Positions 1,904 to 44,099 of a stretch of 64,000 nucleotides of DNA are shown here, piece by piece. Source of the DNA: Patescibacteria group bacterium (GTDB taxonomy: Bacteria > Patescibacteriota > Patescibacteriia > GWA2-46-9); assembly GCA_041675205.1 (NCBI GenBank), contig JBAYUF010000001.1:84863-148862 (forward strand), read 5' to 3'. The notes under the pieces are model-generated. The model made no database searches. It was not told the origin of the DNA and worked only from the letters and a program-made list of their open reading frames with translations. Position 1 is the first letter of the stretch. Each line of letters begins with the position of its first letter. The translations under genes and the position numbers were made by a program.

Positions 1904-3388
<1,485 letters not shown>

Positions 3389-21854: not shown

Positions 21855-22562
21855 ATGATGGATTTTTTTCAAAAACTTGGCGTTCGATTTGATCAGCACA
21901 GCCAATCAATCCTGTTGGCGTTTCTGTTTTTTGTTGGTGGCGTTGGTCTCATTCTTGGTGGAATGAATTTGCGAAGCTCTTTACGAAATCCATTTATTGA
22001 AAAGGGTGTTGGCGCTCTTCAAACAGCCGAGGGAACAACAGCGCTGGTTGACACTGATGGTGATGGCTTAACCGACGAAGAGGAATTGGCGCAGTATGGC
22101 ACGAGTCCGTATTTGGCGGATTCTGACTCAGATGGCGCAAACGATGCCGATGAACTTGCTGCGAGCAGTGACCCCAATTGTCCAACTGGAAAAAATTGTC
22201 AGGCCGTGGCTGAACTTGATGTGCCGAGTAGCGCCGGTGATACCTTCTCGTCGCTCCTACAGGTTTCTGCAAATGGCACAACAGAACCAAGTGCGGCGCA
22301 GATTCGAGCGGCGTTGCTCACTTCCGGTGTGGCTGAATCAGAATTGGCAAAACTAACTGATGAAGAAATAGTTGCTGGGTATCGTAGCGCTGTGCAGGCT
22401 CAAACTTCAACGACAGCGAGTGATGGCGTTCAGAATCTTTCGACAGAAGAAATTCGAAAGGTACTTAAAGAGCAAGGAGTGACTGACGAGCAGCTCTCCA
22501 AAATTTCTGACACCGAACTGCTGAAACTTTACGAAGAGACGCTGCGTCAGACGCAGCCGTAG
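21855..22562 (+). CDS. membrane-anchored hypothetical protein with a DTDGDGLTDEEE calcium-binding-type motif and two tandem ~30-aa repeats (…EEIxxxLxxxGVxExxLxKxxDxE…)
   Basis: N-terminal TM segment. 235 aa. 9-nt gap to the giant gene. Confidence 0.6.
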   Translation: MMDFFQKLGVRFDQHSQSILLAFLFFVGGVGLILGGMNLRSSLRNPFIEKGVGALQTAEGTTALVDTDGDGLTDEEELAQYGTSPYLADSDSDGANDADELAASSDPNCPTGKNCQAVAELDVPSSAGDTFSSLLQVSANGTTEPSAAQIRAALLTSGVAESELAKLTDEEIVAGYRSAVQAQTSTTASDGVQNLSTEEIRKVLKEQGVTDEQLSKISDTELLKLYEETLRQTQP

Positions 22563-25500: not shown

Positions 25501-28500
25501 TTGTTCAGCCGCCGCGGTTGGTTGTGATGAATTCACAAACTTAGACACAACAACGCAAGGCGGCGAATCGCGCGAGTTCTACCAACAGGTTCGATTCTGT
25601 GAATTACCAGGTAGAGCAGATGCCGGGACATTCTACACATGGGAAGGGTCAGACGACACCGGCTTCCAGTTGCGAGTCTTTACTTTAAAGAAAACGGATG
25701 TTGGAGTAGAAAATTATTTTGTAAACGATGTCGGTGACACCGGTGTTGACAGCGCCGCGCCGTGTACGAAAATTGATTGGTCCGACGATGGTCAGTCTGC
25801 GACCTGTGCTGATACAACGCAAACCGCTGACCCGGCGTGGCGAACCTGCAACGAGAACACCTATCAAGGGAATCCCGATTGTCGACAGTTTTATAATGAA
25901 GCTGGTTTAGTGTCGTACCGTTTGCTATCCCACACCATTAGCGTGACGGACCAATGTCGGCCATTACGGAAAACGACGTCCAACACCATAGATTGTGAGG
26001 CATCAAATGGTTGGTGGAACAGTGCGTTGCAGGCCTGCTTGTATCAAGCCGTGCCAGGTGAAGGTCGGCAGTGTAATGCGGCGGTTGCTGGCTGCCGTGA
26101 GTATCGAGGCGGCACAGCCGCTCGATATCGAACTATTTTAAATGACACCTTTGAGCGTGGCACTGGAAACTGGGAGGGTGGACGATTAAGCCCGGTGGCC
26201 AGTACAGTCGGCGGACATTCGTATGAAATACTTGATCGCACTACCCGTAAACCAGTAACGGTTTCTGATGGTAGCAGTACGGCAGTTGACGGCTCGGTTA
26301 CAAACGGGGCAACGTACGTCGTGAGTTTTTCAGCACGGGCACAAAATGGCGATACTGATTCAGCTTTCGTACTTTCTTTTGAAAGAAAGAGCGGGGAGGT
26401 CGACCTATTAATTACAGATTCTTTAACGAATGAGTGGCAAACATATCAGAGTGACCCAGTAACTATCTCTGTAGACCCTACTGACCCCCTGGTTGGTTTA
26501 CTTATAACGCATGCTGGTGCAGGTCGCGCTTATGTCGATAACGTTACATTACGCACCACGAGTGATACGCATTACCTCATTAAAAATTCTTGGCAAACAC
26601 CATCCGCTTGCTTTGCTCCGGACACTGGGGAACCCTATTTGGGTTGCCAATCATATAGAGTGAGTGACGGTTCGGAACGTTCTGTGTGGGAGTTTGGCGG
26701 AGCCTGTCATGATAAGGTCGTTGGCTGTGAAGCCGTCATCGACACGCAAAACACAACGATTGGTGAAGTAGCCCCCTTTGCTAAGACATTTGCTGAGGAC
26801 AGTGAAACAATCATTACCGTACCTGAAGACTCGCTCGACTATATCGTTAATGACCCAGCCAAAACATGTAAAGTAAGCGCCCAAGGGTGTGAGCTTTTGG
26901 GGAAAGCAAACCTTTCTACTGCGTCAGCATCTCCAACCCTTCCGTTGGCCTTAGCGGTTTTGCGATGCCACACACAAAGAAATTCTTGTGTTTCAGATTT
27001 GCGCATTAGATTAGTTGCCGCCGGGTATGATAAAGATTTGCTAACAACACCAGGTATTGATGAAAATTTAGTAGCGAAGTTTGACAGTAACGTTTTAGGC
27101 GCTAAGGATGCGTTACTCATCTTGCGCAATTCTGTTGGTCTTGGAGATCCAAACATTAGCACCTGGACGACAGGAGCTGTCTTAAATAATCCTGACACCT
27201 ACGACAGTATTCTTTGTCGAATTGATGAGCTTCAGTGTTCTGCCTTTACTGATAGCGGTGGCTCGACGTATTACTTTAAAGATCCAGGTAGCCAAATTTG
27301 TGAATACCGAACTGACAAACCAATCGCTGGTTGGTACGTTAAGGGAACCATAAGTCTGACCCCAGATTGTAACGCTAGTCAGAATGATCCTGACGTTAAC
27401 ATCCACATTGCCGGTGGCACTGCGCCTAGCCCGCAGTCTGGGTTTACTGGTGTGTGTCCGGCGCAGCAAAATAGTTGTCGCGAATTTATTGATCCTCGGT
27501 CTGATGGCAGCGCTAACATTCTCTATAACGGTGAGTTCATATTGAAAACTGATGACAAACCAGTTCGGTGGAAGGAAACGGTTCCTGGGGATATAGCTGA
27601 TGTAGAGGGTGGTGTTAAAATTATGGAGGGTGGTCTTGAGCAAGAGCGGGTGGCACTTCGAACGCGCACCCTGTACGTATTGTCAGCCGAGGTGAAAGCG
27701 GTAAATGCCGCCGCTACTAAAACAGCGGGCTATGTCGGTATAGATTGTGGCGTGGGTGAAGTGTTTACTGCTAGTGATATTCCCTATGCCTTTGCCGTGC
27801 CACGTTCTACGGAAACCTTCGAACGATTCAGTACACAGTTTTATGTTAGTGGTGACGACCAGGGTGATTGCACCGTTAGTGTTGGTTTGGCGGCAAGTTT
27901 GCTTCCTCGAGACAAAAGCGAATTTACCACAAATAGCGGTGTGATTGTTCGTGCCATTAGCTTACGCGAAGCAGGACTACACTATGAATTAGCCAATGGT
28001 GTATCGCAAAAAGATTGTGCTGGTACGGTAAACAATGCGAACTGCGTGCTGGTTGGTGTGCAGCAAGACTTCACCCAAAAAGGTATCACCGCCAATTTTG
28101 ATGCCGATACAAGCCCCACAAGTACGAAAGTGCCAAACAGCGATAGTCGGGGAGAGTATGTATGTATTACCGCCGAGAGCCGCTGTGTTGGAACTGATAG
28201 GGCGTGTACTAATGATAGCGACTGTCAGCTGCAAAAAGATGCAACGTTCATTGCTAGCGTGCAGCCAGGTCGCGAGTGTGGTGCATGGCTATCTTGCCGG
28301 ACGGCCAGAACAGTTGTCAAAGGTGGGGTTACTAATAACGTTTGTCTGGAGGTTGAAGGGTGCCAAGAGCTCGACGACAAGGGGAATTGTATTCGACGAG
28401 CCCCAGACGTTATTGATACTGACCTGACCTACACGGCAGCCACCGTCGACCTCTTGCGTAATCGGTCCGGGTATTCAAAGGTCGGCTTTGACTGGACAAC

Positions 28501-31036
28501 GGATCCGTTGAAGAAAAAAGTGATTCAGGGGTATTTAGCGCCAGGGATGATGAGCCAAATTGGTCAGTTAGCCGGGAATTTTAATGGTACCTTTGAGAGC
28601 GCTAGCATTGTTGGTGAACCGTTCGGGTGGGTTGGATGGGGGCAAGGCCAGAATATGCTGGTGATTGGTGACCCACTGGCTGCTCAGGATGCAGGCATTA
28701 GTTATCCTGCAGAAGGGAAGAATGTACTTGAGGTAAACGCCAATCATGCTGATCCAGACGCCAATCATGCTGATCCAGACGACGATTACGTGCTTAATGA
28801 TGCTTCAACAAATCTTTCTCGCTTTATTCCCGTTACACCAAACACCGAGTACGTGCTATCTGCTTTGGTGAACACAAGGCAATTCACTGGTGAAAGTAGC
28901 GAAGTTCGTGTCTTTGAATACAACGGCATTGCTGAAACTATTCCCAATGCCACGGGTGATAAGTTTTCTGCTCTACTTAACCTTGGTCGTGGGACTGAGT
29001 GGACTATTCGCACTGATAAATTTACAACAGCTAGCACTACGAGTTACGTGCGACTGCAACTTTCATGGGTGCCGCAGGCCGGTAAACCAGAGACTTCCGG
29101 GTTCTGGTATATTGATGATATTAAATTACAACCAGCACTTGAATATCAGAAAAATGAGTTTTATAACCCTAACGACCTGGCGGGTAGTAGGGTTGCTCCT
29201 GACTTTCCACCACTTGCCTATGAGCGAGGTTTAGAAACGCTTGATTATAAGTACGCTTCACAGTCATGCCGGCTTTACCCGCAGGCTGATGCCCTGTCGT
29301 GCTCCTACTTTGACGACAATGGATTAAAGCAGCGCGGTAAACTGGGTTATTGTTTGGAGTGGGACACGCAAAATAAGAATTACTGCATCCAGTGGTGGCC
29401 GGTGGACAATGTTATTGGTGAAGACAGTGAAGAAGATCGAGCCGGTTACGACGGCCCCGTTCCTTTGTACCAGTGCATTGAAACCTACGACGGCTTCTTA
29501 CCAGCCACCAGCAATAATTTTTACGGTGTCTATTACAATGGCAAACATTCCTCAATTAAAATAGAGGATCCGTGGGAAAGCTATCAGATAGAAGCAGATA
29601 GTACCGTTGTCATCGACCTCTTCAAGAGTGGCTTTGATGGTTTGCCAAATGTGTCATCCGGTGGCATTACTGATAAGCCTGGTACCTGCAACAGAGATGG
29701 CGGTGACATCACTGGGTGTGAAATCGCGATTCGTATATTGAAGGCTAGTGATGACGAGGATGAATGTGCCGAGGTGTATGTTGGTAACAAAATGGGACAG
29801 GTCGTTAATGGTGACGACAGTGAAGACGGGGATGTAAAAGTGAGAGCGGCAGAAGTGACAAGAGTTACAACCCGCAAGTCAGCCGCCTTTCTTGATTTAG
29901 CTGATCTTGGCCCTGAAAATAGTAAACGCAACTATCGGTATCTTAAAATTTCAACTATTGATACTGGTTGCGATCAATCAGAGATTCGGCTTTGGGTCCG
30001 TCCTAACTTTGCCTGCACGGCAGTGCTTCGAACAGTGGACGAGGATGGTACTAATAAGGCCTACGCCAGTCGGGTAACGTCTGGAGCTACCTACCCATTT
30101 AGTTTTCCAGGCGGTCTAACCTACGGGTATTCAACTGATAGCCCACCATTTGGTTCGGCGGTGCCGCCAGCCCCGGCGGGAGATCCCACGCAATGGGATA
30201 CCAATACTGAAGCTGGAAAACAGGCACTGTTCGCTATGCCGAAGCAGGTGAATACTAGCAACAAAGAGCTCGCCCGAGCTGGTGGCCCGTATAGCTGTCT
30301 TTCGATTGGTTCAGTGCAACCTTTCGTTGCCGAAGGTGAGCCATGGACCTGGGGAGGGACGGTTAGCATTAGGCAGCCAGCATGTGCTTCTTATCTTGGT
30401 GTACCTGGAGTAGTCGGGGGTCGTAATGAGGCGGTTAAACTGCTACAAAATTTATTTGTTAAGAGCTACGGGATGTGGGAGTGGAAGAATGAAGCATACA
30501 CTCCAGCAACTGGTGCTATTTTAACAGTACCGGATGAGCGGTGTAAGAATAATGTTCGACCCGAACCGGATGATCCTGATGCTGCCGATGCTTGCTTTGT
30601 GTATCCAGGTATTCCAAAGGCTGTGTTAGACACAACAACCGTTAAGGATGTCGGTGTTGTTGGTATTAGATTCACCGCCGTAGCTGACTCCGACCAGGAG
30701 CCTATTGTGCAGTACATAGTAGACTGGAGGGACGGCTCTAAGACTACGCAAACAGGCTTACGACTTTCCAGCCGTTCAGAAATTGCGCAGGCGATTTCGC
30801 TCACTCACAATTACTCTTTTGATCAAATCAGTCAGTGCAAAGAAAATGGTGATTGTGGGGATGTTGGCGGTACCGGTACCGATAGCAATCCGTTCACTGT
30901 CAAGCCACAGGTGCAAATTCTAGATAACTGGGGATTCTGTAGCGGTAGTACCCTTGGTTCGGGAGACAGCCTGAGCACGGGTGGCTGTACAGGCTCATGG
31001 AAAGAGACGGAAAACGAGGTAGAGATTACCAGATAG
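22571..31036 (+). CDS. giant secreted Cys-rich protein (2,821 aa) with several CBM4/9- or galactose-binding-like beta-sandwich segments
   Basis: Signal peptide with a …RANA|QA cleavage site. Uninterrupted 8.5-kb ORF. Recurring NPGFE…GW-type segments. High Cys content. Confidence 0.85.
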   Translation: MQLGLHNRQKRHRFVGALLALVFLFTGTFGAPQRANAQAIKAFTTSVSDIWTSLQTIGDKAVAAYEKAADIKTEALKESAAVSFRQGVSYFLNKIASDTAVWIASGGKGQKPLFITQGWGSYLTDAAEGAAGAFVDGLITGPVASCQCRDQYGSIEPNTATEEVQCLTTTTINGIPVECQWTPGTKSDSTNTLGLIAQGLCAPDADIQLSINLGLANSGRQRAPKCTFSRIKHNWEQLIREKNFLPTLSQSFNPSQSDLGIALTLQSNLLLEKREAKERAEKERLEAGGYKPVTGGVGDVLKLPGQTVRGIFDGVFKTTTEQNQSPTGTIIGDAVDIFVNTLATNFLKNLISGGFSGNTSSSGGNKPNLSNFEAESATEGVLGAQARLAQELRPRFTVPGRYDVLSQLVSCQNTKNPGPNDCVITDSFRNAVSQRLTVREAVDRGLINADAPFGFVAWDPQSVEPSYNEGIPYRSILILRKYRIVPVGWELAARYIERFQDDSPKRVTLGELLNLYDQPELPGGALNPYYHLVDPSWVLVPPDSFCKLQGSGPQILSQDVLPGVDSDNDGKFTSVGDTAPKVAISRNANYCADEQTCIARDNDGNCKFYGYCTEEKQVWDFGGKSCSPQFSSCTTLKNELSGTTVSYLLNTVDFSPCDASSVGCAMYSATPLSDTVWSTSDVIFLNNQAETCSKDDAGCRKFIRTGAQFLNGLSTNLVRNPGFEVVAEDNSFTGWTANGGAVESVTEAQFSGSRSLKATTLSVLSQSVLTGPLANQTVTLSFEARGAIAGQVLGYTLAAGDAIQTAATLTTEWQHYEVRKTYGATAASSLTLELSVLTGVAIDNVKIQLGAASAYSAYGEGASNSSVYLKRAPAYLSAKTDIDFLASNEQSCRPSAVASDAVDENSERAECQPYARYCTPQEAGCLRYTPTNRTTPVTAVSGSSCPGECVGFDTYTQGKTFFESVKFVDLIPTSGERCSAAAVGCDEFTNLDTTTQGGESREFYQQVRFCELPGRADAGTFYTWEGSDDTGFQLRVFTLKKTDVGVENYFVNDVGDTGVDSAAPCTKIDWSDDGQSATCADTTQTADPAWRTCNENTYQGNPDCRQFYNEAGLVSYRLLSHTISVTDQCRPLRKTTSNTIDCEASNGWWNSALQACLYQAVPGEGRQCNAAVAGCREYRGGTAARYRTILNDTFERGTGNWEGGRLSPVASTVGGHSYEILDRTTRKPVTVSDGSSTAVDGSVTNGATYVVSFSARAQNGDTDSAFVLSFERKSGEVDLLITDSLTNEWQTYQSDPVTISVDPTDPLVGLLITHAGAGRAYVDNVTLRTTSDTHYLIKNSWQTPSACFAPDTGEPYLGCQSYRVSDGSERSVWEFGGACHDKVVGCEAVIDTQNTTIGEVAPFAKTFAEDSETIITVPEDSLDYIVNDPAKTCKVSAQGCELLGKANLSTASASPTLPLALAVLRCHTQRNSCVSDLRIRLVAAGYDKDLLTTPGIDENLVAKFDSNVLGAKDALLILRNSVGLGDPNISTWTTGAVLNNPDTYDSILCRIDELQCSAFTDSGGSTYYFKDPGSQICEYRTDKPIAGWYVKGTISLTPDCNASQNDPDVNIHIAGGTAPSPQSGFTGVCPAQQNSCREFIDPRSDGSANILYNGEFILKTDDKPVRWKETVPGDIADVEGGVKIMEGGLEQERVALRTRTLYVLSAEVKAVNAAATKTAGYVGIDCGVGEVFTASDIPYAFAVPRSTETFERFSTQFYVSGDDQGDCTVSVGLAASLLPRDKSEFTTNSGVIVRAISLREAGLHYELANGVSQKDCAGTVNNANCVLVGVQQDFTQKGITANFDADTSPTSTKVPNSDSRGEYVCITAESRCVGTDRACTNDSDCQLQKDATFIASVQPGRECGAWLSCRTARTVVKGGVTNNVCLEVEGCQELDDKGNCIRRAPDVIDTDLTYTAATVDLLRNRSGYSKVGFDWTTDPLKKKVIQGYLAPGMMSQIGQLAGNFNGTFESASIVGEPFGWVGWGQGQNMLVIGDPLAAQDAGISYPAEGKNVLEVNANHADPDANHADPDDDYVLNDASTNLSRFIPVTPNTEYVLSALVNTRQFTGESSEVRVFEYNGIAETIPNATGDKFSALLNLGRGTEWTIRTDKFTTASTTSYVRLQLSWVPQAGKPETSGFWYIDDIKLQPALEYQKNEFYNPNDLAGSRVAPDFPPLAYERGLETLDYKYASQSCRLYPQADALSCSYFDDNGLKQRGKLGYCLEWDTQNKNYCIQWWPVDNVIGEDSEEDRAGYDGPVPLYQCIETYDGFLPATSNNFYGVYYNGKHSSIKIEDPWESYQIEADSTVVIDLFKSGFDGLPNVSSGGITDKPGTCNRDGGDITGCEIAIRILKASDDEDECAEVYVGNKMGQVVNGDDSEDGDVKVRAAEVTRVTTRKSAAFLDLADLGPENSKRNYRYLKISTIDTGCDQSEIRLWVRPNFACTAVLRTVDEDGTNKAYASRVTSGATYPFSFPGGLTYGYSTDSPPFGSAVPPAPAGDPTQWDTNTEAGKQALFAMPKQVNTSNKELARAGGPYSCLSIGSVQPFVAEGEPWTWGGTVSIRQPACASYLGVPGVVGGRNEAVKLLQNLFVKSYGMWEWKNEAYTPATGAILTVPDERCKNNVRPEPDDPDAADACFVYPGIPKAVLDTTTVKDVGVVGIRFTAVADSDQEPIVQYIVDWRDGSKTTQTGLRLSSRSEIAQAISLTHNYSFDQISQCKENGDCGDVGGTGTDSNPFTVKPQVQILDNWGFCSGSTLGSGDSLSTGGCTGSWKETENEVEITR
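28739..28780 (+). repeat. perfect 21-bp tandem duplication inside the giant gene (ANHADPD x2, in frame)
   Basis: gccaatcatgctgatccagac is repeated twice head-to-tail. Confidence 0.9.
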
Positions 31037-31039: not shown

Positions 31040-31369
31040 ATGGCAAATACATTTAGCAGCGTTGACGAACAATTGCTTGCCCAAAATAGTGATGTGGGTG
31101 AACAAGAGCGCGCACAGCAACTGCGTGGGCTGCAGTCTATTGCCCGTCGGCAACTCGCCTCGCGGGCGGTGAAAAAGGGTGCTGGGGCAGCAGCCCGTTC
31201 GGGCGCCATGGGGGCCGCAAAAGCCGCTCGAACAATTTGGATTATTATGGCTGCTCTTGCCACCCCGGAAGTCTTGACGGTCGTTATCGTTTTGATGCTT
31301 CTTGTACTCTTCATGAATTACGCCTTATCGATACCAGTTGTCGGCGACATACTGAAGTGGTTTCTATGA
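31040..31369 (+). CDS. small membrane protein (109 aa, C-terminal TM hairpin)
   Basis: 4-nt gap after the giant gene. Its stop overlaps the next start (ATGA). Confidence 0.55.
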   Translation: MANTFSSVDEQLLAQNSDVGEQERAQQLRGLQSIARRQLASRAVKKGAGAAARSGAMGAAKAARTIWIIMAALATPEVLTVVIVLMLLVLFMNYALSIPVVGDILKWFL

Positions 31370-34300
31370 GTTTTCGTGATCTCTTAAAGAAGAAATATAT
31401 ACGTCGTCAGGTATTGATAGCTGCAATGCTCGGTTTCATTGTCATGCTTCCTATCGGTGTTAAGGCAGCAGGGATTGGTGACGGGATTCAGGGGACCATC
31501 TTCGGAGTACTTTCATGGGGCATTTATGGCATTGTGCTCTTTTTATCTCGTTTTACCGTTTGGCTTGTCGGTTTTTTAGTAAGCATCGGACAGTATAACG
31601 GATTTATTAATTCACCAGTTGTGTTGCAGGGTTGGGTGGTATTGCGAGATATATCGAACATGTTCTTTGTACTCATCCTACTTTTGATAGCGTTTGGCAC
31701 CATCCTTCATATTGAGCAATATCAAATGAAACGATTGCTGCCCAAAGTGCTCCTCATGGCAATCTTGGTTAACTTTAGTAAAGCCATCGCCGGGCTGCTG
31801 ATTGATTTCTCACAAGTTATAATGCTCACTTTTGTGGCGGCGTATCAGGCTGCCGGAGCGGGGAATTTAGCGCAGGCAATGCATCTAGATAAAATTTTAG
31901 CAATAAAAAATACAGAGGATGGTGGTTTGTTTGATGAAGCTGCTGCCGAGACGCTCGTGGCATTACTACTTGCACTTGTATACATAGTCGTTGCCTCGGT
32001 TGTTGTTGGGGCTTTTGCGGTGATACTTGTGGTACGAATGGTGATGTTGTGGTTGCTCATCATTTTTTCACCACTCGCCTACGTCCTTTCCGTTGTGCCT
32101 ATTGGGCAAAAGTATGCCAGTCAGTGGTGGGAAAATTTTGCAAAATATGTAATTTTAGGTCCGGTCATGGCATTTTTCTTGTGGCTATCACTCGCCACAC
32201 TGCCGACCCTTATTGCAAGTGACGCCGACCTTGCTGTTCGTACACAATCAAGCGGTAGCGCACAATCACTCGCCGAAGAGAAAGAGCAAGTCAAAACCAT
32301 CGGTATTACAGAGATTGGCTCTGGGTCTGTGATGTCCGGATTTCTCATCAGCATCGTTATGCTCTTTGCGTCGCTCATGTTTGCAATCCAGACTGGTGGC
32401 GTGGTTGGGAAGATTGCTGGTGGTGCCTATGGTCAATTACTGAGTAAAGGCACCACAGTGGCAAAGATACCATTAGGCCTTGCCAGTTGGGGAGAAAGAA
32501 AGGTTGCTCGCATGACGGGTGGTGTAACCGCATTTCTGAACCCAGTCCGGGTTGCTCGGGCTTGGCGTGGTTACGCTGCACACAAAGCGGGTCGTGAGGA
32601 GGCAGAAATTGGCTATCGAGCAGGGAGCGCCGCTAGTGCTCATTTTGCCGCTGGTCGAGGGGTGCGCGGCGCACTGCGATTAATGGCCGGAGCGCATGAA
32701 GATGCTTTTGAAACGTATATGGGAACGCATGGAGTGATGCGTTTTGTCAAAACCATGAGCGGCAACAGTAAAACAGGTACGAATGATTTTCTTGATGCGA
32801 AACGATTACAGCAAGAGGCAGATATTGAGCGGGAAACTTTCAATGCCGCAACTGATAAGGGGCGAGTAGATAAGATTCGGCAAATTGGAAAAGAGCACTA
32901 TGCCGACAAATTTCGTACCAAGATTATGAAGGAGGAAGTTGATCGCGTCAGTGTTATTCGTGGTTTTGGGAAAAGCGACAATAAACTTGACCCCTATAAT
33001 TCACGTAAAGAAATTAACGATGAAGGTAAGCAAGAAGTAGTTACCCTTAAAGACGCAGCAGAAAAAGCAGGCGTTGATTTAACAGACACTAGCAGTAGTA
33101 CAACACAGGCGTTTCTGCGTGAATGGGATGAAGATAATGCCCGTCGTGATTTAGGTAAGCGGCCAGGTGGTTTGGAGGGTCGGGTGAGCGCACTTGTTGC
33201 AAAAAAGGGCGATGCTGATATTTTGGACCAAGGCAAACGTACGCTCGGTGAGAAATTAAAAGCGCAAGAATCCTATGTTACGGAGCTTATGGCGGGTGGG
33301 CTTTCGAGCACAGAAAAAGCAACACGTGAGCAACAAGAAAAGACAGTAGATGAAGAATTACGACGTATTACTGCGGCGCTTAAAACGGCAAGTGGTGTTG
33401 AGAAACAATCACTCAACGCACTAAAGACAGAATTACAGAAAGAAAAAAAGAGTGGTCGATTTGATAAAGACACTGCAGGTAACTACTTACTGACCAAGAA
33501 AGAACGGGATGAAAATAAAGAGAAAATTAAAGACTTCAGTGATCCTCGCCGGGCTGATTACAGCAGTGCGCTTAAAGAGCAGAAAAAGCTTTACGGGATG
33601 ACGTTAGACCCAGCCGACGCCGCAGAAAAGATGGAAATTGACCGTGCGAAAGCGAAGGCAGATGAAATAATGGCTCGTAGAAAGGAGCCAGATGTGGCAC
33701 CTCGCCCGTATTTTGCCGAACAAGCATTCAGGCATTTAGAGTCGGAAGAATCGTCGAAATTACCGCGCGAAGCCATGGAGTACGACGAAATTGATGCATT
33801 ACTGAAAGATGCATTACATGAGGGGAACATCGTGAAAACATCAGCGCTCATGAAGAAAGCGGCGAAAGATGCTAACGACAACGAAATTTGGAATAGTTTC
33901 GGTTATGGTAGTGGGCCCGAAGGTGCTGAGCAATTTAGAAAGGCAAAACTTGTCCCATTAATGGGGGACCAGGCCTCAATGTCACTCATGAGTGAGCTGA
34001 ACTATATTAACGAAGATATTGGTCACACTAACACCACTCGTTCGTATGGGGTGAGGAATGGTTCATACTATAAGAAATCTGCAGCTGAGCAATCGGCATC
34101 CGCGGCGTGGGAAGTAACGAAACGGCAATCACGAAACTTTTTGCAAAATACAAACCGACTTGGTTTTGGGTATGAAGATACTGAAGGCAAGTTTCACCTT
34201 GATTTAACTGGCAAGCTTATCATTTCATCAATGCAAAATGACATGAATTACCGGTTGAATCGAAAAGAGTTTAACAACAACCTATTGTTGAAATTACTAG

Positions 34301-34455
34301 AAGACGTAGATTCGCTCGACGACATGGTACGACGGGGTCTATTGCGGAGAGATTTGGTTGATAATATGAAGTCGCTAGGCCGAGAACATGTGCGGCGCGG
34401 TGTACCGAATAGCCCGGGTGGTTTTGAGTCAATGGCACGGCAGCTTTCCGTTTAG
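31366..34455 (+). CDS. VirB6/TrbL-like polytopic membrane protein with a ~600-aa coiled-coil-rich hydrophilic C-terminal extension (TcpH/PrgH-like architecture)
   Basis: ≥7 TM segments in the first ~400 aa, then a K/E-rich region. Start chosen at the ATGA overlap rather than the track start 31237. Confidence 0.6.
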   Translation: MSFRDLLKKKYIRRQVLIAAMLGFIVMLPIGVKAAGIGDGIQGTIFGVLSWGIYGIVLFLSRFTVWLVGFLVSIGQYNGFINSPVVLQGWVVLRDISNMFFVLILLLIAFGTILHIEQYQMKRLLPKVLLMAILVNFSKAIAGLLIDFSQVIMLTFVAAYQAAGAGNLAQAMHLDKILAIKNTEDGGLFDEAAAETLVALLLALVYIVVASVVVGAFAVILVVRMVMLWLLIIFSPLAYVLSVVPIGQKYASQWWENFAKYVILGPVMAFFLWLSLATLPTLIASDADLAVRTQSSGSAQSLAEEKEQVKTIGITEIGSGSVMSGFLISIVMLFASLMFAIQTGGVVGKIAGGAYGQLLSKGTTVAKIPLGLASWGERKVARMTGGVTAFLNPVRVARAWRGYAAHKAGREEAEIGYRAGSAASAHFAAGRGVRGALRLMAGAHEDAFETYMGTHGVMRFVKTMSGNSKTGTNDFLDAKRLQQEADIERETFNAATDKGRVDKIRQIGKEHYADKFRTKIMKEEVDRVSVIRGFGKSDNKLDPYNSRKEINDEGKQEVVTLKDAAEKAGVDLTDTSSSTTQAFLREWDEDNARRDLGKRPGGLEGRVSALVAKKGDADILDQGKRTLGEKLKAQESYVTELMAGGLSSTEKATREQQEKTVDEELRRITAALKTASGVEKQSLNALKTELQKEKKSGRFDKDTAGNYLLTKKERDENKEKIKDFSDPRRADYSSALKEQKKLYGMTLDPADAAEKMEIDRAKAKADEIMARRKEPDVAPRPYFAEQAFRHLESEESSKLPREAMEYDEIDALLKDALHEGNIVKTSALMKKAAKDANDNEIWNSFGYGSGPEGAEQFRKAKLVPLMGDQASMSLMSELNYINEDIGHTNTTRSYGVRNGSYYKKSAAEQSASAAWEVTKRQSRNFLQNTNRLGFGYEDTEGKFHLDLTGKLIISSMQNDMNYRLNRKEFNNNLLLKLLEDVDSLDDMVRRGLLRRDLVDNMKSLGREHVRRGVPNSPGGFESMARQLSV

Positions 34456-34467: not shown

Positions 34468-35892
34468 ATGCCAATAACAAAAAAAAATGAAACAATCGAG
34501 GTGGTGGCGAAAGCGCTACCCAATCCAGCATATTTAGAATCGGTTACAAAATATTTCCACGAGCAAGTTTTCGTGGAAGATAATGCTCGAGAGGCCGATA
34601 GGTTTTATCGTGTTTTGGTCGAACTGTTACCGAAAGACTCTTTTAAAGAGCGATACCCAGAGCTCTACACTGGCTATGAAAAGCTGCTGTATGAATGTCA
34701 ATTCTATGCCTTTGCTTGGTTGACTGAAGATGAGGCTCTCAACCTAGTGCGTAATCATTTTTCCCTTGCGTTCCAGCTCTCCGCTATTTTAGAGCTCCGC
34801 CGGAAAATAAGAGTTAAACTTATCGCTGATTATCAGATAGAGGCACGTGATGCTTTCAAGGAAAAGTTACGGCGAGCAGCAGAACAAAATACTGAAGTCA
34901 TTACTGGTAAGCAGCTGCAGCAAGACGGAGCTGCTACAACAGCCCCTCCAACGGTTGGCAATTGGATCAGAAATTATGTGGGTGCTGTTGGTACAGCAGG
35001 GCCGGTGGACGCGCTCCGACAAGCCGAATATTTTACAAAAAATAAGAATTTTGACGCACTGACACAGACGGAGAAAGAGGGCATTCGGTGGTTATTGGAA
35101 ATATACGAGTCACTTCGGTGGTCGTCTTTGACACCGGAAGGTTTAGAGGAAGTACTCTCTACAAATATTGATGGGAAAGAGGTGCTCATTAGTGGAGGGG
35201 AGGTGGAGGAAATTTCTCCTGAAATCCGTAAGCTGGTGCAGAAATTTCAAGAAGTAGGGCTCATTTCTGAGAGTGAAAAACCTTCGCCTGCCGTGCTTGA
35301 AGCTGCTGTGGCGGCATCTACTGTTATTGCAGAAAAACCCGTCGCGATGCCGCCGCTTGTTCTCCCTGTTGCCCCTGCACTTGTGACTGGTGAATTGCCA
35401 CGCATTTCTGCCTTGCCTGCTCCGCCAGTGGTTTTACCATTACCTCCAGTTGCACCAATTATAATTCCAAAGCCACCTGCAGCTGAACCACGGGTTGAAA
35501 AAATTATTAATCCCACTCCGCAAAAGGTGGTGGTCACTAAAACGAGCGAGTCGCCATCAATGGTTGACGTGAAACGGTTTGGCGGTGCTGTTGGGCCAAT
35601 TGATGAGTTACGACTTTCGACACTGAATGATTTTCGTAAACTTGACCCAGATCCAGCTGAGGCGGCGAAGCGAATACTGCAAAAGATTCACCTCCTTGAA
35701 GATGAATCATATGATCGGAAGGCCGACGCCATTCGTGCCTGGCGACAAAGCCCCGTTCATCGATTGTATTTAGACGTCATCGACGAGAGTGTTCGCACAG
35801 GTATGCCAGTAACCGAACTCTTTGAGAAATACAACGTGCGCCAAACGGAATGGGAAGCACTTGGCACGTTATCTCGTGATTTGAGTAGCTAA
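34468..35892 (+). CDS. hydrophilic hypothetical protein (474 aa) with a Pro/Ala/Val-rich linker
   Basis: Clean ORF with no TM segment. PVAMPPLVLPVAPALV…PPVVLPLPPVAPIIIPKPPAAEP. Confidence 0.55.
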   Translation: MPITKKNETIEVVAKALPNPAYLESVTKYFHEQVFVEDNAREADRFYRVLVELLPKDSFKERYPELYTGYEKLLYECQFYAFAWLTEDEALNLVRNHFSLAFQLSAILELRRKIRVKLIADYQIEARDAFKEKLRRAAEQNTEVITGKQLQQDGAATTAPPTVGNWIRNYVGAVGTAGPVDALRQAEYFTKNKNFDALTQTEKEGIRWLLEIYESLRWSSLTPEGLEEVLSTNIDGKEVLISGGEVEEISPEIRKLVQKFQEVGLISESEKPSPAVLEAAVAASTVIAEKPVAMPPLVLPVAPALVTGELPRISALPAPPVVLPLPPVAPIIIPKPPAAEPRVEKIINPTPQKVVVTKTSESPSMVDVKRFGGAVGPIDELRLSTLNDFRKLDPDPAEAAKRILQKIHLLEDESYDRKADAIRAWRQSPVHRLYLDVIDESVRTGMPVTELFEKYNVRQTEWEALGTLSRDLSS

Positions 35893-35894
35893 GT

Positions 35895-36326
35895 ATGCAG
35901 CAGTTTATTATTCCCCAGTTCATTGATGAAGAACCCCATATTCTTGGGCCGATAACTGTTCGACAGTTTTTGCTGCTTCTCATTGCGGGCTTCTTTATTT
36001 TCCTCAGCTATCGACTCGCGGATACTGCCTTATTTATTGTGCTGACCATAGTACTACTCATCATAAGCATAACTTTGGCATTCGTTCGGGTGAACGGTCG
36101 CCCTTTTCATTTCTTTTTGCTAAATTTAGTGCAGACATTGCAACGTCCTCGGTTACGCATTTGGCGCAAAGAAGTGAGCAGAGAAGAAATTCAGGACGAA
36201 TCAAAAATGCCAGTCCTCGTCCCAACTGTCATAGTGGCGAAAGCGCCCATTAGTCGTTCCCGTTTGGCGGAACTCTCACTCATTGTTGATACGGGTGGGG
36301 CATATGCTGGTACTGAAGGTAATTAG
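35895..36326 (+). CDS. VirB3/TcpE/PrgI-like small membrane protein (143 aa, two TM helices)
   Basis: Size, two-helix topology and its position immediately upstream of VirB4. Confidence 0.45.
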   Translation: MQQFIIPQFIDEEPHILGPITVRQFLLLLIAGFFIFLSYRLADTALFIVLTIVLLIISITLAFVRVNGRPFHFFLLNLVQTLQRPRLRIWRKEVSREEIQDESKMPVLVPTVIVAKAPISRSRLAELSLIVDTGGAYAGTEGN

Positions 36327-36343
36327 CGTGTAATTGAAAATAA

Positions 36344-37045
36344 GTGGCTAAAAGAAAGGCAAACAAGGCAACACTGAGTACCCAGCGATTTCTAGAAATC
36401 GCTGAAGTGCATGATGATACCGTTGTCCTTAAGGATGGTAGCCTGCGTGCGGTACTACTTGTTTCGTCAATCAATTTTGCCTTGAAGTCAGACGATGAAC
36501 AGGAAGCGATTATTCAGGGATATATGAGCTTCTTGAACTCTATCGATTTTTCGCTTCAAGTGGTTATGCAATCTCGCCAGCTGAATATCGCTGGCTACCT
36601 TGATAAGTTAACAGCCATTGAGCGTGAGCAGACTAACGAGCTCTTAAAGATGCAGACGGGTGAGTACCGTCAATTTATTAGAGAATTGGTTGAATTGGGG
36701 CAGATTATGAATAAGCGGTTCTATGTGGTGGTGCCATATCAACCTGGGAGCGACAGTCAAAAGCCATTTTTTGCACGACTCCGTGAGGTGTTGCGACCAG
36801 CTTCAATCTTGCGTCTCAGTGAGGATCGGTATCTTCGGCATCGACATGAATTAATGCAGCGGGTTGATCATGTGACGAGCGGGCTTAATTCTTTAAGCCT
36901 CGAAGTTCGCATGCTTGATACACAGACGTTAGTTGAACTGTATTATGGAACGTATAATCCTGAGAGTGCGCGGTTAGCGCCACTTGTTGATCTCCATGAT
37001 TTGCAGGTCGATGATACGGCGTTCCGTTCTACACCATCACTATGA
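36344..37045 (+). CDS. N-terminal domain of a Gram-positive-type VirB4 ATPase, encoded as a separate ORF
   Basis: The [38 protein letters not shown] … RFYVVVPYQP pattern matches what I recall of TcpF/PrgJ N-termini (uncertain). Stop overlaps the next ATG (ATGA). Confidence 0.5.
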   Translation: MAKRKANKATLSTQRFLEIAEVHDDTVVLKDGSLRAVLLVSSINFALKSDDEQEAIIQGYMSFLNSIDFSLQVVMQSRQLNIAGYLDKLTAIEREQTNELLKMQTGEYRQFIRELVELGQIMNKRFYVVVPYQPGSDSQKPFFARLREVLRPASILRLSEDRYLRHRHELMQRVDHVTSGLNSLSLEVRMLDTQTLVELYYGTYNPESARLAPLVDLHDLQVDDTAFRSTPSL

Positions 37046-38898
37046 TTACCTTGAATCGAAATAAAAAAAAGATTGCTGCCGCTGCTGAATCCGTTTCGGT
37101 CGAATCTTCAGCGCAGAGCCGAGAGGCGTTGGAGATCGCAAGAGTTTACCAGAAAGGCGTTATTCGATTGCGTGATATTGTCGCGCCGACTGCGTTTGAG
37201 GTTGAAGCATCGTATATTAAGTTGAATGACCAGTACGTGCGCACACTCTTCATAACAGAGTATCCACGGTACATCTCGGTTGGTTGGTTCGCACCACTCA
37301 TCAATGTTAGTACAACCATTGATCTGGCACTCTATATTTACCCAGTGAGTTCGGGAATTGTTTTAAAGCAACTCCGAAACAAGGTGGGGTCACTGGAAGC
37401 AGAAATTATCGCGGAGCACGAAAAGGGTGCACCGCGCGATCCTATTAAAGAAACAGCATTAAAGGATATTGAACGACTCAGAGATGACCTGACACAGGGG
37501 GTAGAGAAGTTCTTTCAATTTGGGCTTTATGTGACGTTGTACGCTGATACGCTTGAGCATCTTGATAGGACAACAGGGGATATCGTGCAGCTGCTTGGCA
37601 CGAAGCTTGTCTATGCTCGAAAGGTGCTCTATCAGGCAGAGCAAGGCTTTATTTCAACCGTCCCACTTGGCGTTGATGAACTGCAGATTACCTTCAACAT
37701 GAACACGTCACCTATTTCTTCTGCGTTTCCCTTTGTTTCTTCAGAACTGACTAGTGACGACGGCATACTGTACGGTATCAATAGGCACAATAACAGCCTC
37801 ATTCTCTTTGATCGGTTCTCGCTGCAGAATGCGAATACGGTCGTGTTCGCCACCTCTGGAGCTGGAAAATCGTACACTATTAAGCTTGAGGTACTGCGGT
37901 CCCTTATGCTTGGGGTGGACGTTATTGTGATTGACCCTGAAAAGGAATATCAACACCTTTCTGAAGCGGTCGGTGGCACCTACTTAAATATTTCATTGGC
38001 CAGCGAAAGCAAGGTAAACCCTTTTGATTTACCGCGCGGTATTGGTGACGATATACAGACAGGGGACGTCATTCGTAGTGCCGTCATTACGCTGAAGGGA
38101 TTACTTCGTATCATGCTCGGTACGTTAACAAGCGAAGAGGATTCGCTGCTTGATCGCGCCCTCTTGGAAACATATGCCAAAAAAGACATTACACCCGAAT
38201 CTGACTTAACCCGAGTAGAGCCACCAATTTTGGCCGACCTGGAAGACGTTTTGAACGGTATGCAAGGCACGCAAGATATGGTGGCCCGGTTGCAAAAATA
38301 TACCAAGGGGACGTTTGCCGGACTTTTGAATAGCACAACAAACGTCGTCACTGATAATCAACTAATTGTTTTTTCAATCCGAGATTTGGAAGATGAATTG
38401 CGACCAATTGCAATTTACACAATTATAAACCACATTTGGAATTTGGTTCGCAGCGAGCGAAAGAAGCGGATTCTTGTAATTGATGAAGCCTGGTGGATGA
38501 TGCAGCACGAAGACAGCGCCAAGTTTATATTTGCGTTAGTGAAACGGGCTCGTAAATACTATCTTGGGGTAACGACTATCACGCAAGACGTCAGCGACTT
38601 TTTAAGTTCACCGTATGGATTAGCGGTAGTGAATAACTCAGCGATGCAACTCTTGTTGAAACAGTCACCAGCCGCCATTGATTTGGTACAGAAGACATTT
38701 CTTTTGACTGAAGGCGAGAAGTACCTGCTACTGGAGGGCAGTGTTGGTGAAGGCATTTTCTTTGCTGGGCCGAAGCATGCGGCTATTAAAGTTGTGGCTT
38801 CGTATACGGAAGATCGTTTGATTACAACTGACCCACGGCAACTCTTAGAAATGGAGGCGGCGGCAAAGCGCGACAACGCTACACCGCCAGTAGCATAA
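37042..38898 (+). CDS. VirB4/TrbE/CagE-family T4SS ATPase (C-terminal 618 aa including ATPase core)
   Basis: YVRTLFITEYPRYISVGWFAPLIN block. Walker A FATSGAGKSYT. Walker B/DEAW block ILVIDEAWWMM. Confidence 0.8.
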   Translation: MITLNRNKKKIAAAAESVSVESSAQSREALEIARVYQKGVIRLRDIVAPTAFEVEASYIKLNDQYVRTLFITEYPRYISVGWFAPLINVSTTIDLALYIYPVSSGIVLKQLRNKVGSLEAEIIAEHEKGAPRDPIKETALKDIERLRDDLTQGVEKFFQFGLYVTLYADTLEHLDRTTGDIVQLLGTKLVYARKVLYQAEQGFISTVPLGVDELQITFNMNTSPISSAFPFVSSELTSDDGILYGINRHNNSLILFDRFSLQNANTVVFATSGAGKSYTIKLEVLRSLMLGVDVIVIDPEKEYQHLSEAVGGTYLNISLASESKVNPFDLPRGIGDDIQTGDVIRSAVITLKGLLRIMLGTLTSEEDSLLDRALLETYAKKDITPESDLTRVEPPILADLEDVLNGMQGTQDMVARLQKYTKGTFAGLLNSTTNVVTDNQLIVFSIRDLEDELRPIAIYTIINHIWNLVRSERKKRILVIDEAWWMMQHEDSAKFIFALVKRARKYYLGVTTITQDVSDFLSSPYGLAVVNNSAMQLLLKQSPAAIDLVQKTFLLTEGEKYLLLEGSVGEGIFFAGPKHAAIKVVASYTEDRLITTDPRQLLEMEAAAKRDNATPPVA

Positions 38899-39455
38899 TG
38901 TATATGACTCGACGAACAAAGATAATAATAGGTGTTGGGTTCTTGTTGGGCGTTGGAGTGCTCCTATACTTTCTCTTTCAATCTCGACAAACCCCGCCAG
39001 AGGTTACTCCGCCACCGGCAAAGCCAGCAGTTGAAAATAGAGACGATGGTACTGCCCAGGTGATTGGTGGCGTCGAACCTACCCCAGAAAGCACAGCGCT
39101 TCGAACTGCCCGGTTTGTCGCAGAGCGGTACGGTACGTTTTCGAGTGATGAAGGTCTGAATGGGGTGCAAGAATTAGTCGCTGTTTCTACGCCTCAAACC
39201 ACTGAATGGCTAACGGGAATCTACATACCGCAAGTAACATCGCGAATGAAAACTAGTGTATTTTACGCTGAATCTGCTCGCGTGCTTGCGGCAACAATCA
39301 TTACGATAAACGATACAACCGCCGGCGTTCATATTCGTCTACAGCGTCAAATTACTGAAGGGAGCGAAGAACGGATGAATAATGCTGAATTGGATATTGA
39401 ACTGACGCGAAGTGGGAACACGTGGCTTGTTTCAGGCATTTTTGAAGACCGCTGA
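38898..39455 (+). CDS. bitopic membrane protein (N-in, single TM, ~150-aa extracytoplasmic domain), VirB8-like in architecture
   Basis: Start overlaps the VirB4 stop (TAATG). 185 aa. Possibly NTF2-like. Confidence 0.4.
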   Translation: MYMTRRTKIIIGVGFLLGVGVLLYFLFQSRQTPPEVTPPPAKPAVENRDDGTAQVIGGVEPTPESTALRTARFVAERYGTFSSDEGLNGVQELVAVSTPQTTEWLTGIYIPQVTSRMKTSVFYAESARVLAATIITINDTTAGVHIRLQRQITEGSEERMNNAELDIELTRSGNTWLVSGIFEDR

Positions 39456-40168
39456 TGAGCGCAGTTGTTGAAGTATGGCGCTGGCTTACAGACGTAATCC
39501 AGCGTTTACTTTTTCCAGTGTTTTGTTTGCGCTGCGGCGTGGAAGGTGATTTTTTATGTGCTGCTTGTCAAAAAACTGTGCCACCGGTGCCGGTTCAAGT
39601 CTGTGTTTTTTGCTCGGTGTCCAGCCCCAATGGGCGTACGTGCAGTGCCTGCAGCCGACATGCGCTTGACGGCGTTTGTGTGCGTGGCATGTACGATGAC
39701 TGGAGTTGGCGGGTGCTCATTACGGCCTGGAAATTTCATGGTGCAGCAATCACGCCGCTCCTCAGTCGGCTTCTTGAGGATAGTATCGCCGTGCTTCCAG
39801 AAAGTTATCGGACTGGGAAGTTTATGGTAGTTCCAGTACCGCTTGCTAGACGTCGACAACGTGAGCGGGGTCGAAATCAATCAGCGGAGCTCGCGAATGC
39901 GCTTGTCGGTCATCAGTTGATTGTAGCTGCGCTTACTCGTGTTCGAGAGACCGCCCAACAATCGCAGTTATCAAAAAAAGATAGGATACGAAATGTTCAT
40001 GCTGCCTTCAAAGCTAATCCTGCGCTTGTGCAACCGGACACAAACTATCTGCTCATCGACGACGTAGTCACTACTGGGGCTACGCTTGAACAAGCGGCGC
40101 AGGCGCTTAAAGAAGTCGGCGCAACGTCTGTTTGGGCAGTTACTCTAGCAAGAAGTCGCTTGCTTTAA
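39455..40168 (+). CDS. comFC: ComF family protein (ComFC): N-terminal 4-Cys zinc finger plus phosphoribosyltransferase-type domain
   Basis: CLRCG…CAAC / CVFC…CSAC cysteine pairs. PRTase motif LLIDDVVTTGATL. Start overlaps the previous stop. Confidence 0.8.
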   Translation: MSAVVEVWRWLTDVIQRLLFPVFCLRCGVEGDFLCAACQKTVPPVPVQVCVFCSVSSPNGRTCSACSRHALDGVCVRGMYDDWSWRVLITAWKFHGAAITPLLSRLLEDSIAVLPESYRTGKFMVVPVPLARRRQRERGRNQSAELANALVGHQLIVAALTRVRETAQQSQLSKKDRIRNVHAAFKANPALVQPDTNYLLIDDVVTTGATLEQAAQALKEVGATSVWAVTLARSRLL

Positions 40169-40369
40169 GTGCTAGTGAGAAAGAAGAAACAAAAAAAGTT
40201 TCTAACGGGTACTTCATCTATTTGCCGTCGCATGGTAGGGACGATTGGCGGAACTTTGAACCAAAAGAACGGCTTAACTTCGCGATTATCGATAAAAGAA
40301 AAGGAAAATTAAGACGAATTTACGAGGAAAATCTAAACTGCTTTGAAATTCCAAAGCTCGCGCTTAAAA

Positions 40370-40987
40370 TTATTGAAGAATGATCGATTTTAACTCGGCA
40401 ATGTTATTAATTATAAAATCTGGTTTTAAAGCTTCGAGTCTTTCTTTTGTGAAAAATCCCCACGTTACCGCTCCAGTCTTTACTCCCGCGTTTTTGCCTG
40501 CTTCTATTTCATGATTTGAATCGCCGATAAAGATAGTTTCTTCCAATTTAAAATTATTTCTTTTTGTTAATTCATATAGACTTTCGGTTTTGTCATACGC
40601 ATTGGTGATAACATCATAAAAAATATCTTGGAGTCCAAAACTGACAATTTCTGGCAAAAGAGTTTCAGGGAAATCAGAACTTAAAACTGCAATTTTAATT
40701 CCCTTTCTTTTAAAATCTTTAATGCTTTCTACAATTCCAGGATAAGATTTTCCTTTTGGGGATTTAGCGACCGCGCGTCTGTAAGCAGTCTGTTCTTCTT
40801 CAAGAGTAAGATGGGGTGCATATTTATTATAAAAACGCATGTAGGGTTGTTCCCATTCTTCCTTCAACTCTATTAATGAAATTGGTTTCAAGTCTAATTC
40901 CTCAAAAATTCGATTAACAACAATTAGCTGATTTTCAACTGAATCGTTTATCACTCCTGACCAATCAAAAATTATATTTTTAAACAT
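40370..40987 (-). CDS. HAD-superfamily hydrolase (phosphatase-like), in an AT-rich islet
   Basis: Motif I IIFDWSGVI, motif IV IGDSNHEIEAG. Local GC is markedly lower than the window average. Confidence 0.7.
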   Translation of the reverse strand: MFKNIIFDWSGVINDSVENQLIVVNRIFEELDLKPISLIELKEEWEQPYMRFYNKYAPHLTLEEEQTAYRRAVAKSPKGKSYPGIVESIKDFKRKGIKIAVLSSDFPETLLPEIVSFGLQDIFYDVITNAYDKTESLYELTKRNNFKLEETIFIGDSNHEIEAGKNAGVKTGAVTWGFFTKERLEALKPDFIINNIAELKSIILQ

Positions 40988-41133: not shown

Positions 41134-41211
<78 letters not shown>

Positions 41212-41222
<11 letters not shown>

Positions 41223-43359: not shown

Positions 43360-43789
43360 CCTGAGGGAGGGATTTCCGGCGTGTCTCGTCGTCAGCAGTA
43401 CGACTCAGTGCTCTAATTTGAAGGGGAGGGATTCGCCTACAAATCGCTTCGGCTTCCGCCTCAGCGTTCGCAGGCCGCCCCTCGCGGTCTTCGTCGTCAG
43501 CAATACTCCTCAGACATCGCTGCGGGCTTCTCACCCCTCACACGAGCAAATCAATTTGCTCGTTCCCTTCCTCGGAACACTGACATTATTATATTTATCT
43601 TTTGGTATGTTCCTCGGAAGGTGGGTCGGGAATCGGTCACAACTCTCGTCGGCTTCCGCCTCCTCGGTCGCGACCCCGCCTCACGGTCTTCGTCGTCAGC
43701 AATACTCCTCAGACATCGTTCCGGCTTTCGAATCCCTCACGCGAATGAAGCAGTTCATTCGCTCCCTTCCTCGTTCACAAAGTTCACTT
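43360..43789. repeat. array of degenerate tRNA-Ser(GCT) 3'-end copies (43420, 43608) with a 28-31-bp repeat family (43384-43414, 43489-43518, 43690-43720) and repeated hairpin+tcccttcctcg blocks, 3' of the intact tRNA
   Basis: cgtcgtcagcaatactcctcagacatcg occurs twice, ~200 bp apart. gaaggggagggattcgcc and ggaaggtgggtcgggaatcgg mimic the tRNA 3' end. Confidence 0.65.
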
Positions 43790-43879
43790 CGGAAGGGGAG
43801 GGATTCGAACCCTCGGTACGGAAAAAAACCGTACAACGGTTTAGCAAACCGTCGCCTTAGGCCACTCAGCCACCCTTCC
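43790..43879 (-). tRNA. tRNA-Ser (anticodon GCT), long variable arm, CCA not encoded
   Basis: Reverse complement has GGAAGGG/CCCTTCC acceptor, anticodon loop TTGCTAA, a long extra arm and T-loop TTCGAAT. Confidence 0.85.
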
Positions 43880-44099
43880 GTATGCATCTGGCTACGCCAG
43901 ATTATAAAAAACCGTCGGCTTCGTGCCCCCGGGGTTGTTTTTTACAACCCGCCGAATGCTGCGCCTTCTCGCATTCAGCCCACTCAGCCACCCTTCCATC
44001 AAGTATTTAACGTCTGCCAAGTGTAGCCGCGAGGGGTCGATTCGTCAATTGACAAAATTGACCCAACACAGGCATTTCCGTATACTTCTCAAGTAAACT

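Follow-up and report, generated by a model that had tools for sequence, protein, structure and literature searches.

The 64,000-nucleotide (nt) window of Patescibacteria DNA considered here, which is the whole stretch that was analyzed (positions 84,863 to 148,862 of contig JBAYUF010000001.1), carries on its plus strand two overlapping open reading frames (ORFs) that very probably encode the two chains of a VirB4 protein belonging to a chromosomal type IV secretion system (T4SS). The first, ORF1 (36344 to 37045), begins with GTG, encodes a TrsD-like or "TraC-like" (PF26593) protein of 233 amino acids (aa) and ends at a TGA stop codon (37043 to 37045), and the second, ORF2 (37042 to 38898), begins with ATG and encodes a 618-aa VirB4-family ATPase without the first N-terminal module, giving a combined length of 851 aa. 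Directly 5' of ORF1, on the same strand, lies the gene for a 143-aa PrgI-family (VirB3-like) small membrane protein (35895 to 36326; Pfam PF12666). The start codon of ORF2 sits on the stop codon of ORF1 in an ATGA overlap (37042 to 37045), which from its sequence is a putative termination-reinitiation coupling site. ORF2 is in the -1 frame relative to ORF1, and its frame is closed upstream by a TGA at 37012 to 37014, 30 nt ahead of the ORF2 ATG, leaving the 28 nt from 37015 to 37042 open in both frames. A run of eight adenines (A8; 37063 to 37070) lies 18 nt beyond the junction and downstream of the ORF1 stop, within ORF2 codons N7 to K10 (AAT AAA AAA AAG). The two overlapping ORFs, the upstream TGA, the A8 run and the peptide motifs quoted in an initial annotation of this DNA were all confirmed; that annotation had allowed that the split might be genuine, a frameshift or pseudogene, or an assembly error.

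The ORF2 protein matches the NCBIfam profile NF045971 (CD1110 VirB4-like) with 344 bits (E = 1.7e-102), above the cut-off of 325, and the match runs over positions 177 to 729 of 752, short of the whole profile expected of a single polypeptide. Pfam places in it TraG/AAA_10/DUF87 P-loop domains (P-loop_TraG, E = 4e-29), residues 236 to 592 match the VirB4 C-terminal domain structure 4AG5 (E = 7.4e-43), and residues 264 to 562 match residues 445 to 735 of the R388 VirB4 protein TrwK (E = 6e-5). Both nucleotide-binding motifs expected of the VirB4 family are intact in the translation, namely a Walker A of the GxxGxGKS/T type (ATSGAGKS, residues A270 to S277, plus-strand positions 37849 to 37872), which aligns with the P-loops of homologues, and a Walker B of the hhhhDE type (ILVIDE, residues I477 to E482, plus-strand positions 38470 to 38487), which aligns with their DE pair. 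The score against the diderm VirB4/CagE profile TIGR00929 is 115 bits, far under its cut-off of 643, so ORF2 is not filed in that subfamily. On these alignments ORF2 is the predicted second part of the VirB4 N-terminal region followed by the Walker A/B ATPase domain.

The part that ORF2 lacks is found in ORF1. Its protein matches positions 6 to 120 of the 752-position CD1110-type VirB4 profile and positions 96 to 233 of the Mbov_0397 VirB4 profile (both NCBIfam), and its family aligns by hhalign with pSK41 TrsD (91.8% probability, E = 7e-7, 111 columns). Precomputed annotation lists PF26593 "TraC-like" for a protein that is 100% identical to ORF1 (P0001, from a metagenome-assembled "Patescibacteria group bacterium") and for all 120 listed homologues, while a local Pfam scan of ORF1 did not return PF26593 and gave only PF11130 TraC_F_IV, at 17.6 bits against a cut-off of 28.1. 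A comparator in which both parts occur in one chain is an 831-aa VirB4 protein from a Bacillus mycoides plasmid, with which the ORF1 family aligns over residues 14 to 206 (hhalign, 97.9% probability), and to whose residues 243 to 818 ORF2 aligns with its residues 43 to 600 (31% identity, E = 3e-79). By this comparison ORF1 is the predicted counterpart of the first ~200 residues of a single-chain VirB4 and ORF2 that of the remainder, the two being collinear with the fused homologue, and the initial annotation's assignment of the VirB4 N-terminal part to ORF1 and of the ATPase core to ORF2 is thereby upheld. In size and place, ORF1 also resembles the TrsD prototype, a homologue of ~200 to 230 aa encoded between the VirB3-like and VirB4 genes (233 versus 227 aa).

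ORF1 was modelled with AlphaFold2 from a 55-sequence alignment, and the model has a mean predicted local distance difference test score (pLDDT) of 73 and a predicted template-modelling score (pTM) of 0.63, with predicted disorder at residues 1 to 15 and 211 to 233. When the model was compared with the PDB using Foldseek, the best 14 matches were all chains of R388 TrwK/VirB4, the top one with E = 5.4e-4, probability 1.0 and 186 aligned columns, and the ranks after the TrwK chains were taken by unrelated folds at a non-significant E > 0.1.

Whether the split is peculiar to this genome can be judged from its relatives. A search for ORF1 homologues found 4020, and the best 120 of them, from which lengths and identities were taken, are all stand-alone proteins of 188 to 248 aa (median 227), with identities down to 54%, and span many Patescibacteria lineages. 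With one genome scanned for each GTDB species, 587 loci were confirmed, of which the best 80 were taken, including members of the Uhr-, Falkow-, Buchanan-, Magasanik-, Nomura- and Parcubacteria and of the Saccharimonadales, and junction statistics were compiled for the 78 of these with enough downstream DNA. In each of the 78 the ORF1 homologue terminates at a stop codon of its own (TAA in 59, TAG in 12, TGA in 7) and is followed by a separate ORF2 homologue, which where complete is ~610 to 650 aa long and 65 to 79% identical to ORF2. No fused ORF1-ATPase gene occurs in the 78 loci, and one that an automated count had flagged as fused (L012) in fact carries an ATGA overlap as here. The ATPase gene lies in relative frame 0, 1 or 2 in 32, 23 and 23 loci, the gap between the two genes has a median of 8 nt and lies between -8 and +192 nt, and in 74 the gene immediately before the ORF1 homologue is PrgI-like. 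In the closest species genome, of the Uhrbacteria (L001), the ORF1 homologue is followed by a 47-nt spacer with several stops, a GGAG motif and then the ATPase's own ATG. Because the two-gene layout recurs in all 78 other species genomes, the pattern is far beyond chance, and the comparison with related genomes that the initial annotation had proposed thus gives a split rather than a single gene throughout.

These relatives bear directly on the idea that a once single VirB4 gene was disrupted here by a recent frameshift mutation or by pseudogenization. Such an event would agree with a 4-nt overlap between different frames and with a summed length close to that of one VirB4, and fused homologues do exist, namely the Bacillus mycoides plasmid protein and an 898-aa protein, P0255, discussed below. 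However, the other species share the two-gene state at 51 to 71% identity while differing in stop codons, spacers and relative frame, close relatives (L086 to L088 and L001) have no single uninterrupted gene, and the staphylococcal ATPase TrsE of pSK41 begins at the same point as ORF2. Both ORFs here are also full length with their invariant motifs intact, and the Walker A and B motifs are present. A separate stop and start kept across 78 species and all three frames, together with thousands of stand-alone homologues, exclude frameshift or pseudogenization, and we consider this origin of the split very unlikely.

An error of sequencing or assembly, such as a miscalled length of the A8 homopolymer, would have split one gene artificially, and both the nearness of A8 to the junction and the source of the sequence, a metagenome-assembled genome, could be cited in its favor. 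Against this, the Logan assemblies of SRR6484325 and SRR18595300 carry exactly the same 121-nt junction, ATGA and A8 included, and since two independent sequencing runs share it an assembly error is excluded. Nor would changing the run help: with one A more the body of ORF2 would enter the ORF1 frame and still meet TGA at 37043 and 37052, and with one A fewer it would shift to the third frame. The A8 run is interrupted in a relative 87% identical (L088), which retains the TATGA overlap, and is absent in L001. The A8 run plays no part in joining the two frames, because it sits past the ORF1 stop, and the relevance to the split that the initial annotation had given it is not borne out; it does no more than encode Lys-Lys-Lys near the N-terminus of ORF2, in a tail that is poorly conserved and probably disordered. 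An artificial split is, in our judgment, extremely improbable.

A fused full-length VirB4 could in principle also be made from the two frames by programmed recoding, either a -1 ribosomal frameshift or reassignment of the stop codon. ORF2 does lie in the -1 frame with a 28-nt window open in both, and UGA is reassigned in some Patescibacteria lineages. Yet neither a slippery heptamer of the form X XXY YYZ nor a homopolymer occurs in that window, TACGGCGTTCCGTTCTACACCATCACT, and reading UGA as sense would continue in the frame of ORF1, not that of ORF2, with the next TGA only 9 nt on. Moreover, most relatives end ORF1 with TAA or TAG and have spacers laden with stops, and no frame relationship is conserved among them, all of which makes recoding a highly unlikely route to a single chain. 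The split therefore reflects two real genes, with neither a frameshift or pseudogene nor an assembly error behind it, so that of the three possibilities left by the initial annotation only the first stands.

Fusion of the two parts is rare in the wider family. A profile search of 1.84 billion cluster representatives (50% identity) returned 3456 relatives, 547 of them at E <= 1e-30, and among the best 150 of the 3456 there are, by length, 86 proteins of 200 to 260 aa, 52 of 261 to 450 aa, 11 fragments below 200 aa and a single fused protein, P0255. In P0255 an ORF1-like module (residues 1 to 223, 37% identity) is joined through a ~90-aa Pro/Ala/Gly-rich linker to a VirB4 part (residues 313 to 892, 51% identity to ORF2), and it could represent either a true re-fusion or a local frameshift in its contig. 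The break falls where the ORF1 model is disordered, where the ORF2 N-terminus is of low complexity and where P0255 is rich in Pro and Ala. Seven of the 52 long representatives were inspected (P0127, P0147, P0148, P0158, P0165, P0167 and P0198), and all have C-terminal low-complexity tails of Pro, Gln, Thr, Ala and Asn; the ORF1 of this locus has no such tail. About 30 further loci, together with L006, L007, L009 and L012, come from records titled "uncultured Gammaproteobacteria bacterium" (TPA "binchicken" co-assemblies) despite a typical Patescibacteria locus, which looks like a systematic taxonomic mislabel.

The long representatives bring up a different possibility, that ORF1 is an independent accessory protein such as a regulator or chaperone, descended from a VirB4 N-terminus but not completing the ATPase. 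Low-complexity tails of 100 to 200 aa have no counterpart in single-chain VirB4 proteins, and TrsD homologues of Gracilibacteria do not adjoin virB4 (PMC12102498), both of which would suit an accessory role. Arguing for a more intimate relationship, the ORF1 gene is tightly and near-universally next to the ATPase gene, often overlapping it, the fused form P0255 connects the two with a simple Pro/Ala linker, and the segment missing from ORF2 is exactly what ORF1 supplies. On balance we regard an accessory protein as unlikely.

We favor instead, with high confidence, the reading that the TrsD-like ORF1 and ORF2 are both genuine genes, that they belong to a type IV secretion locus on a Patescibacteria chromosome, and that together they correspond to one VirB4. 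At the ATGA overlap, termination and reinitiation would couple translation of ORF2 to termination on ORF1, and such coupling would favor near-equimolar synthesis of the two proteins. The two chains would then associate non-covalently into a functional VirB4, in which the ORF1 module may contact the VirB3-like PrgI protein and the membrane complex, the role taken by the VirB4 N-terminus in single-chain systems.

Several considerations weigh against this reading. The ORF1 model is of moderate confidence only, with template-modelling (TM) scores of ~0.47 against TrwK. By hhalign the ORF1 family aligns with R388 TrwK at just 8% probability over 26 columns (ORF1 120 to 145 with TrwK 115 to 140), and the ORF1-family sequence profile finds nothing meaningful in the PDB, the best hit being a designed fibre with E = 0.05. 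The sequence-level likeness of ORF1 to diderm VirB4 proteins is therefore negligible, and the link between them rests on the fold search and on monoderm intermediates, because sequence-only methods miss it. Against the NCBIfam TrsD/TraD family NF041427, ORF1 scores 29.3 bits over residues 7 to 67 only, with a cut-off of 200; since that cut-off is not reached we call ORF1 only "TrsD-like", and it falls outside this narrowly defined family. TrsD itself has no assigned function (PMC12102498), and there is no obvious Shine-Dalgarno sequence at the start codon of either ORF1 or ORF2. Homology, collinearity, conservation of the two genes and integrity of the ATPase motifs are established; the binding of ORF1 to ORF2 or to PrgI, and with it the docking role, is what we infer from them.

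Separate ORF1-like genes extend well beyond Patescibacteria. On plasmids of Firmicutes and haloarchaea, more distant ORF1 homologues also have a gene to themselves, and the next gene encodes a DUF87 or "transfer complex" ATPase of ~600 to 640 aa, examples being Clostridium perfringens pJFP838A, Geobacillus pLW1071 and Haloprofundus. On the Haloprofundus halobius plasmid NZ_CP083668 (L083, 3656 to 6609), a separate gene for a 349-aa ORF1 homologue immediately precedes that of a 633-aa "transfer complex protein", and further haloarchaeal plasmid homologues of ORF1 are found in Halobacterium and Haloarcula. Since haloarchaeal plasmids carry a separate ORF1-like gene, the two-gene VirB4 layout reaches the archaea. 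This distribution suggests a wider possibility, which we offer tentatively and hold to be slightly more doubtful than probable, that the TrsD-like protein is an ancient detachable N-terminal module of VirB4. Fission at the disordered linker would then be common to Patescibacteria, to pGO1-type and other Firmicutes plasmids (Clostridium, Geobacillus) and to haloarchaeal plasmids, with occasional re-fusion as in P0255 and the Bacillus mycoides plasmid protein, and the module, often long-tailed, might link the VirB3-like protein to the ATPase as an adaptor that can be exchanged or regulated. If true, this would be the first functional assignment for TrsD.

The genes around the pair fit a secretion locus set in the chromosome. 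The upstream 143-aa protein scores 35 bits against the PrgI profile PF12666 (Pfam cut-off 27), and homologues of VirB4, TrsD and PrgI/VirB3 thus lie together on the chromosome at 35895 to 38898, the grouping that marks a Patescibacteria-type T4SS. The cluster is flanked by genes for UvrA, LeuRS, TsaC/Sua5 and KsgA and by a ComF-like gene, and these, with a 16S rRNA gene in the window, place it on the chromosome. Packing is tight, with overlaps at 37042, 38898 and 39455 and upstream gaps of 2 to 17 nt, and a promoter and terminator scan of 35800 to 40300 gave nothing above the shuffled expectation and nothing at the junction. Two plus-strand genes lie upstream, each within those 2 to 17 nt of its neighbor. 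The first (31237 to 34455) encodes a 1072-aa protein whose N-terminal half is strongly hydrophobic and whose C-terminal half is charged and coiled-coil-like, and the second (34468 to 35892) encodes a Pro-rich protein of 474 aa. By position the two may be candidates for the VirB6-like channel and another T4SS component, and both genes are also upstream in an independent contig (L086); the TTG annotated as the start of the first, at 31237, probably lies too far upstream. Downstream, the plus-strand gene of a 185-aa protein with an N-terminal hydrophobic segment (38898 to 39455) overlaps the ORF2 stop by 1 nt, and a ComF-like gene, encoding a double zinc ribbon and a phosphoribosyltransferase, starts at 39455, the last base of the 185-aa gene's stop codon, so that the overlaps at 38898 and 39455 continue the coupling style downstream of ORF2. 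Pfam and NCBIfam gave no match for the 1072-aa, 474-aa and 185-aa neighbors, and in these two libraries no VirB6-like or VirB2-like pilin gene was recognized beside the pair.

Farther upstream, immediately before the T4SS genes, a 2821-aa plus-strand ORF (22571 to 31036) has a CBM_4_9 carbohydrate-binding domain at residues 1188 to 1300 as its sole recognizable domain, and it is preceded by the plus-strand gene of a 235-aa protein with a bacterial TSP3 repeat (21855 to 22562); these two proteins could be a surface adhesin or an epibiont effector. A complete 16S rRNA gene lies on the plus strand at 1904 to 3386, and because neither 23S nor 5S rRNA was detected within the 64-kb window the rRNA genes appear to be unlinked. 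The plus-strand ORF at 43418 to 44026 (202 aa, TTG start) is probably spurious, because a 90-nt tRNA match on the minus strand (43790 to 43879) lies within it. Between 40001 and 42000 the guanine-plus-cytosine (GC) fraction is 0.414, compared with 0.46 to 0.53 elsewhere, and the GC skew turns negative; this drop coincides with a switch of gene orientation to the minus strand (ORF 40370 to 40987, tRNA 41136 to 41220). Antisense ORFs across the region are short, at 123 aa or less.

In the survey of Quiñonero-Coronel et al. (2025), TrsD is the most abundant T4SS component of Patescibacteria and occurs mostly beside virB4, with 2,272 homologues of which 1,664 are associated with VirB4 (PMC12102498). 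The T4SS cluster of Ca. Southlakia epibionticum is essential for epibiotic growth (Wang et al. 2023; PMC10633639), and for strain ML1 the TrsD homologue, too, is given as essential (PMC12102498); the system is thus essential for the epibiotic lifestyle in the one Patescibacteria organism tested. The searchable main text of Guglielmini et al. 2014, which PMC12102498 cites for the homology of TrsD and VirB4, does not contain TrsD, and a 2025 FEMS nomenclature review makes no mention of it. A two-gene VirB4, TrsD plus ATPase, is accordingly the normal and already published Patescibacteria architecture (PMC12102498), as which the initial annotation had not identified it, and the arrangement will not surprise a T4SS specialist. 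What is added here is the exact anatomy of the junction, the frame and gap statistics, the match to the TrwK fold and a rare fused relative, and the novelty that remains concerns only the function of TrsD and the evolutionary history of the fission. A view of TrsD as the structural first module of VirB4, split off at a disordered linker and translationally coupled, would give it a concrete, testable role. For annotation, ORF1 and ORF2 should be kept as two genes and given no pseudogene flag, and "TrsD-like / VirB4 N-terminal module" is preferable to "hypothetical protein" for ORF1.

The gene pair can be compared with several known systems. Single-chain VirB4 proteins, such as R388 TrwK (PDB 7O41/8RTB), the CD1110 family and the Bacillus mycoides protein (NZ_CP036106), have the same domains in the same order as ORF1 plus ORF2, and differ in being one polypeptide, whereas in the present locus the first N-terminal module is made apart from the rest. 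Fusions of VirB3 to VirB4 occur in some conjugative systems, none having been found in Patescibacteria by the 2025 survey (PMC12102498), and they too show that domain boundaries around VirB3 and the VirB4 N-terminus are plastic, although the direction is the opposite one, fusion and not fission. In the case of the staphylococcal plasmid pSK41 (MPF_FATA, pGO1 subclass, pSK41/pGO1), the order PrgI-ORF1-ORF2 is matched by trsC (a small VirB3-like membrane protein, 135 aa), trsD (227 aa) and trsE (a DUF87/VirB4 ATPase, 672 aa), and the split falls at the same point, since the alignment of ORF2 with TrsE, at 24% identity, starts at residue 8 in each. The likeness is nonetheless remote, given that ATPase identity and the 29 bits of ORF1 against a TrsD cut-off of 200, and pSK41 encodes machinery for plasmid conjugation that includes a relaxase and a coupling protein, whereas the locus described here is chromosomal and lies among housekeeping genes. 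The Patescibacteria-type T4SS itself (PMC12102498) belongs to the same phylum, is likewise chromosomal and is built on the same core of PrgI/VirB3, TrsD and VirB4; the present locus shows no substantive difference from it and is a further member.

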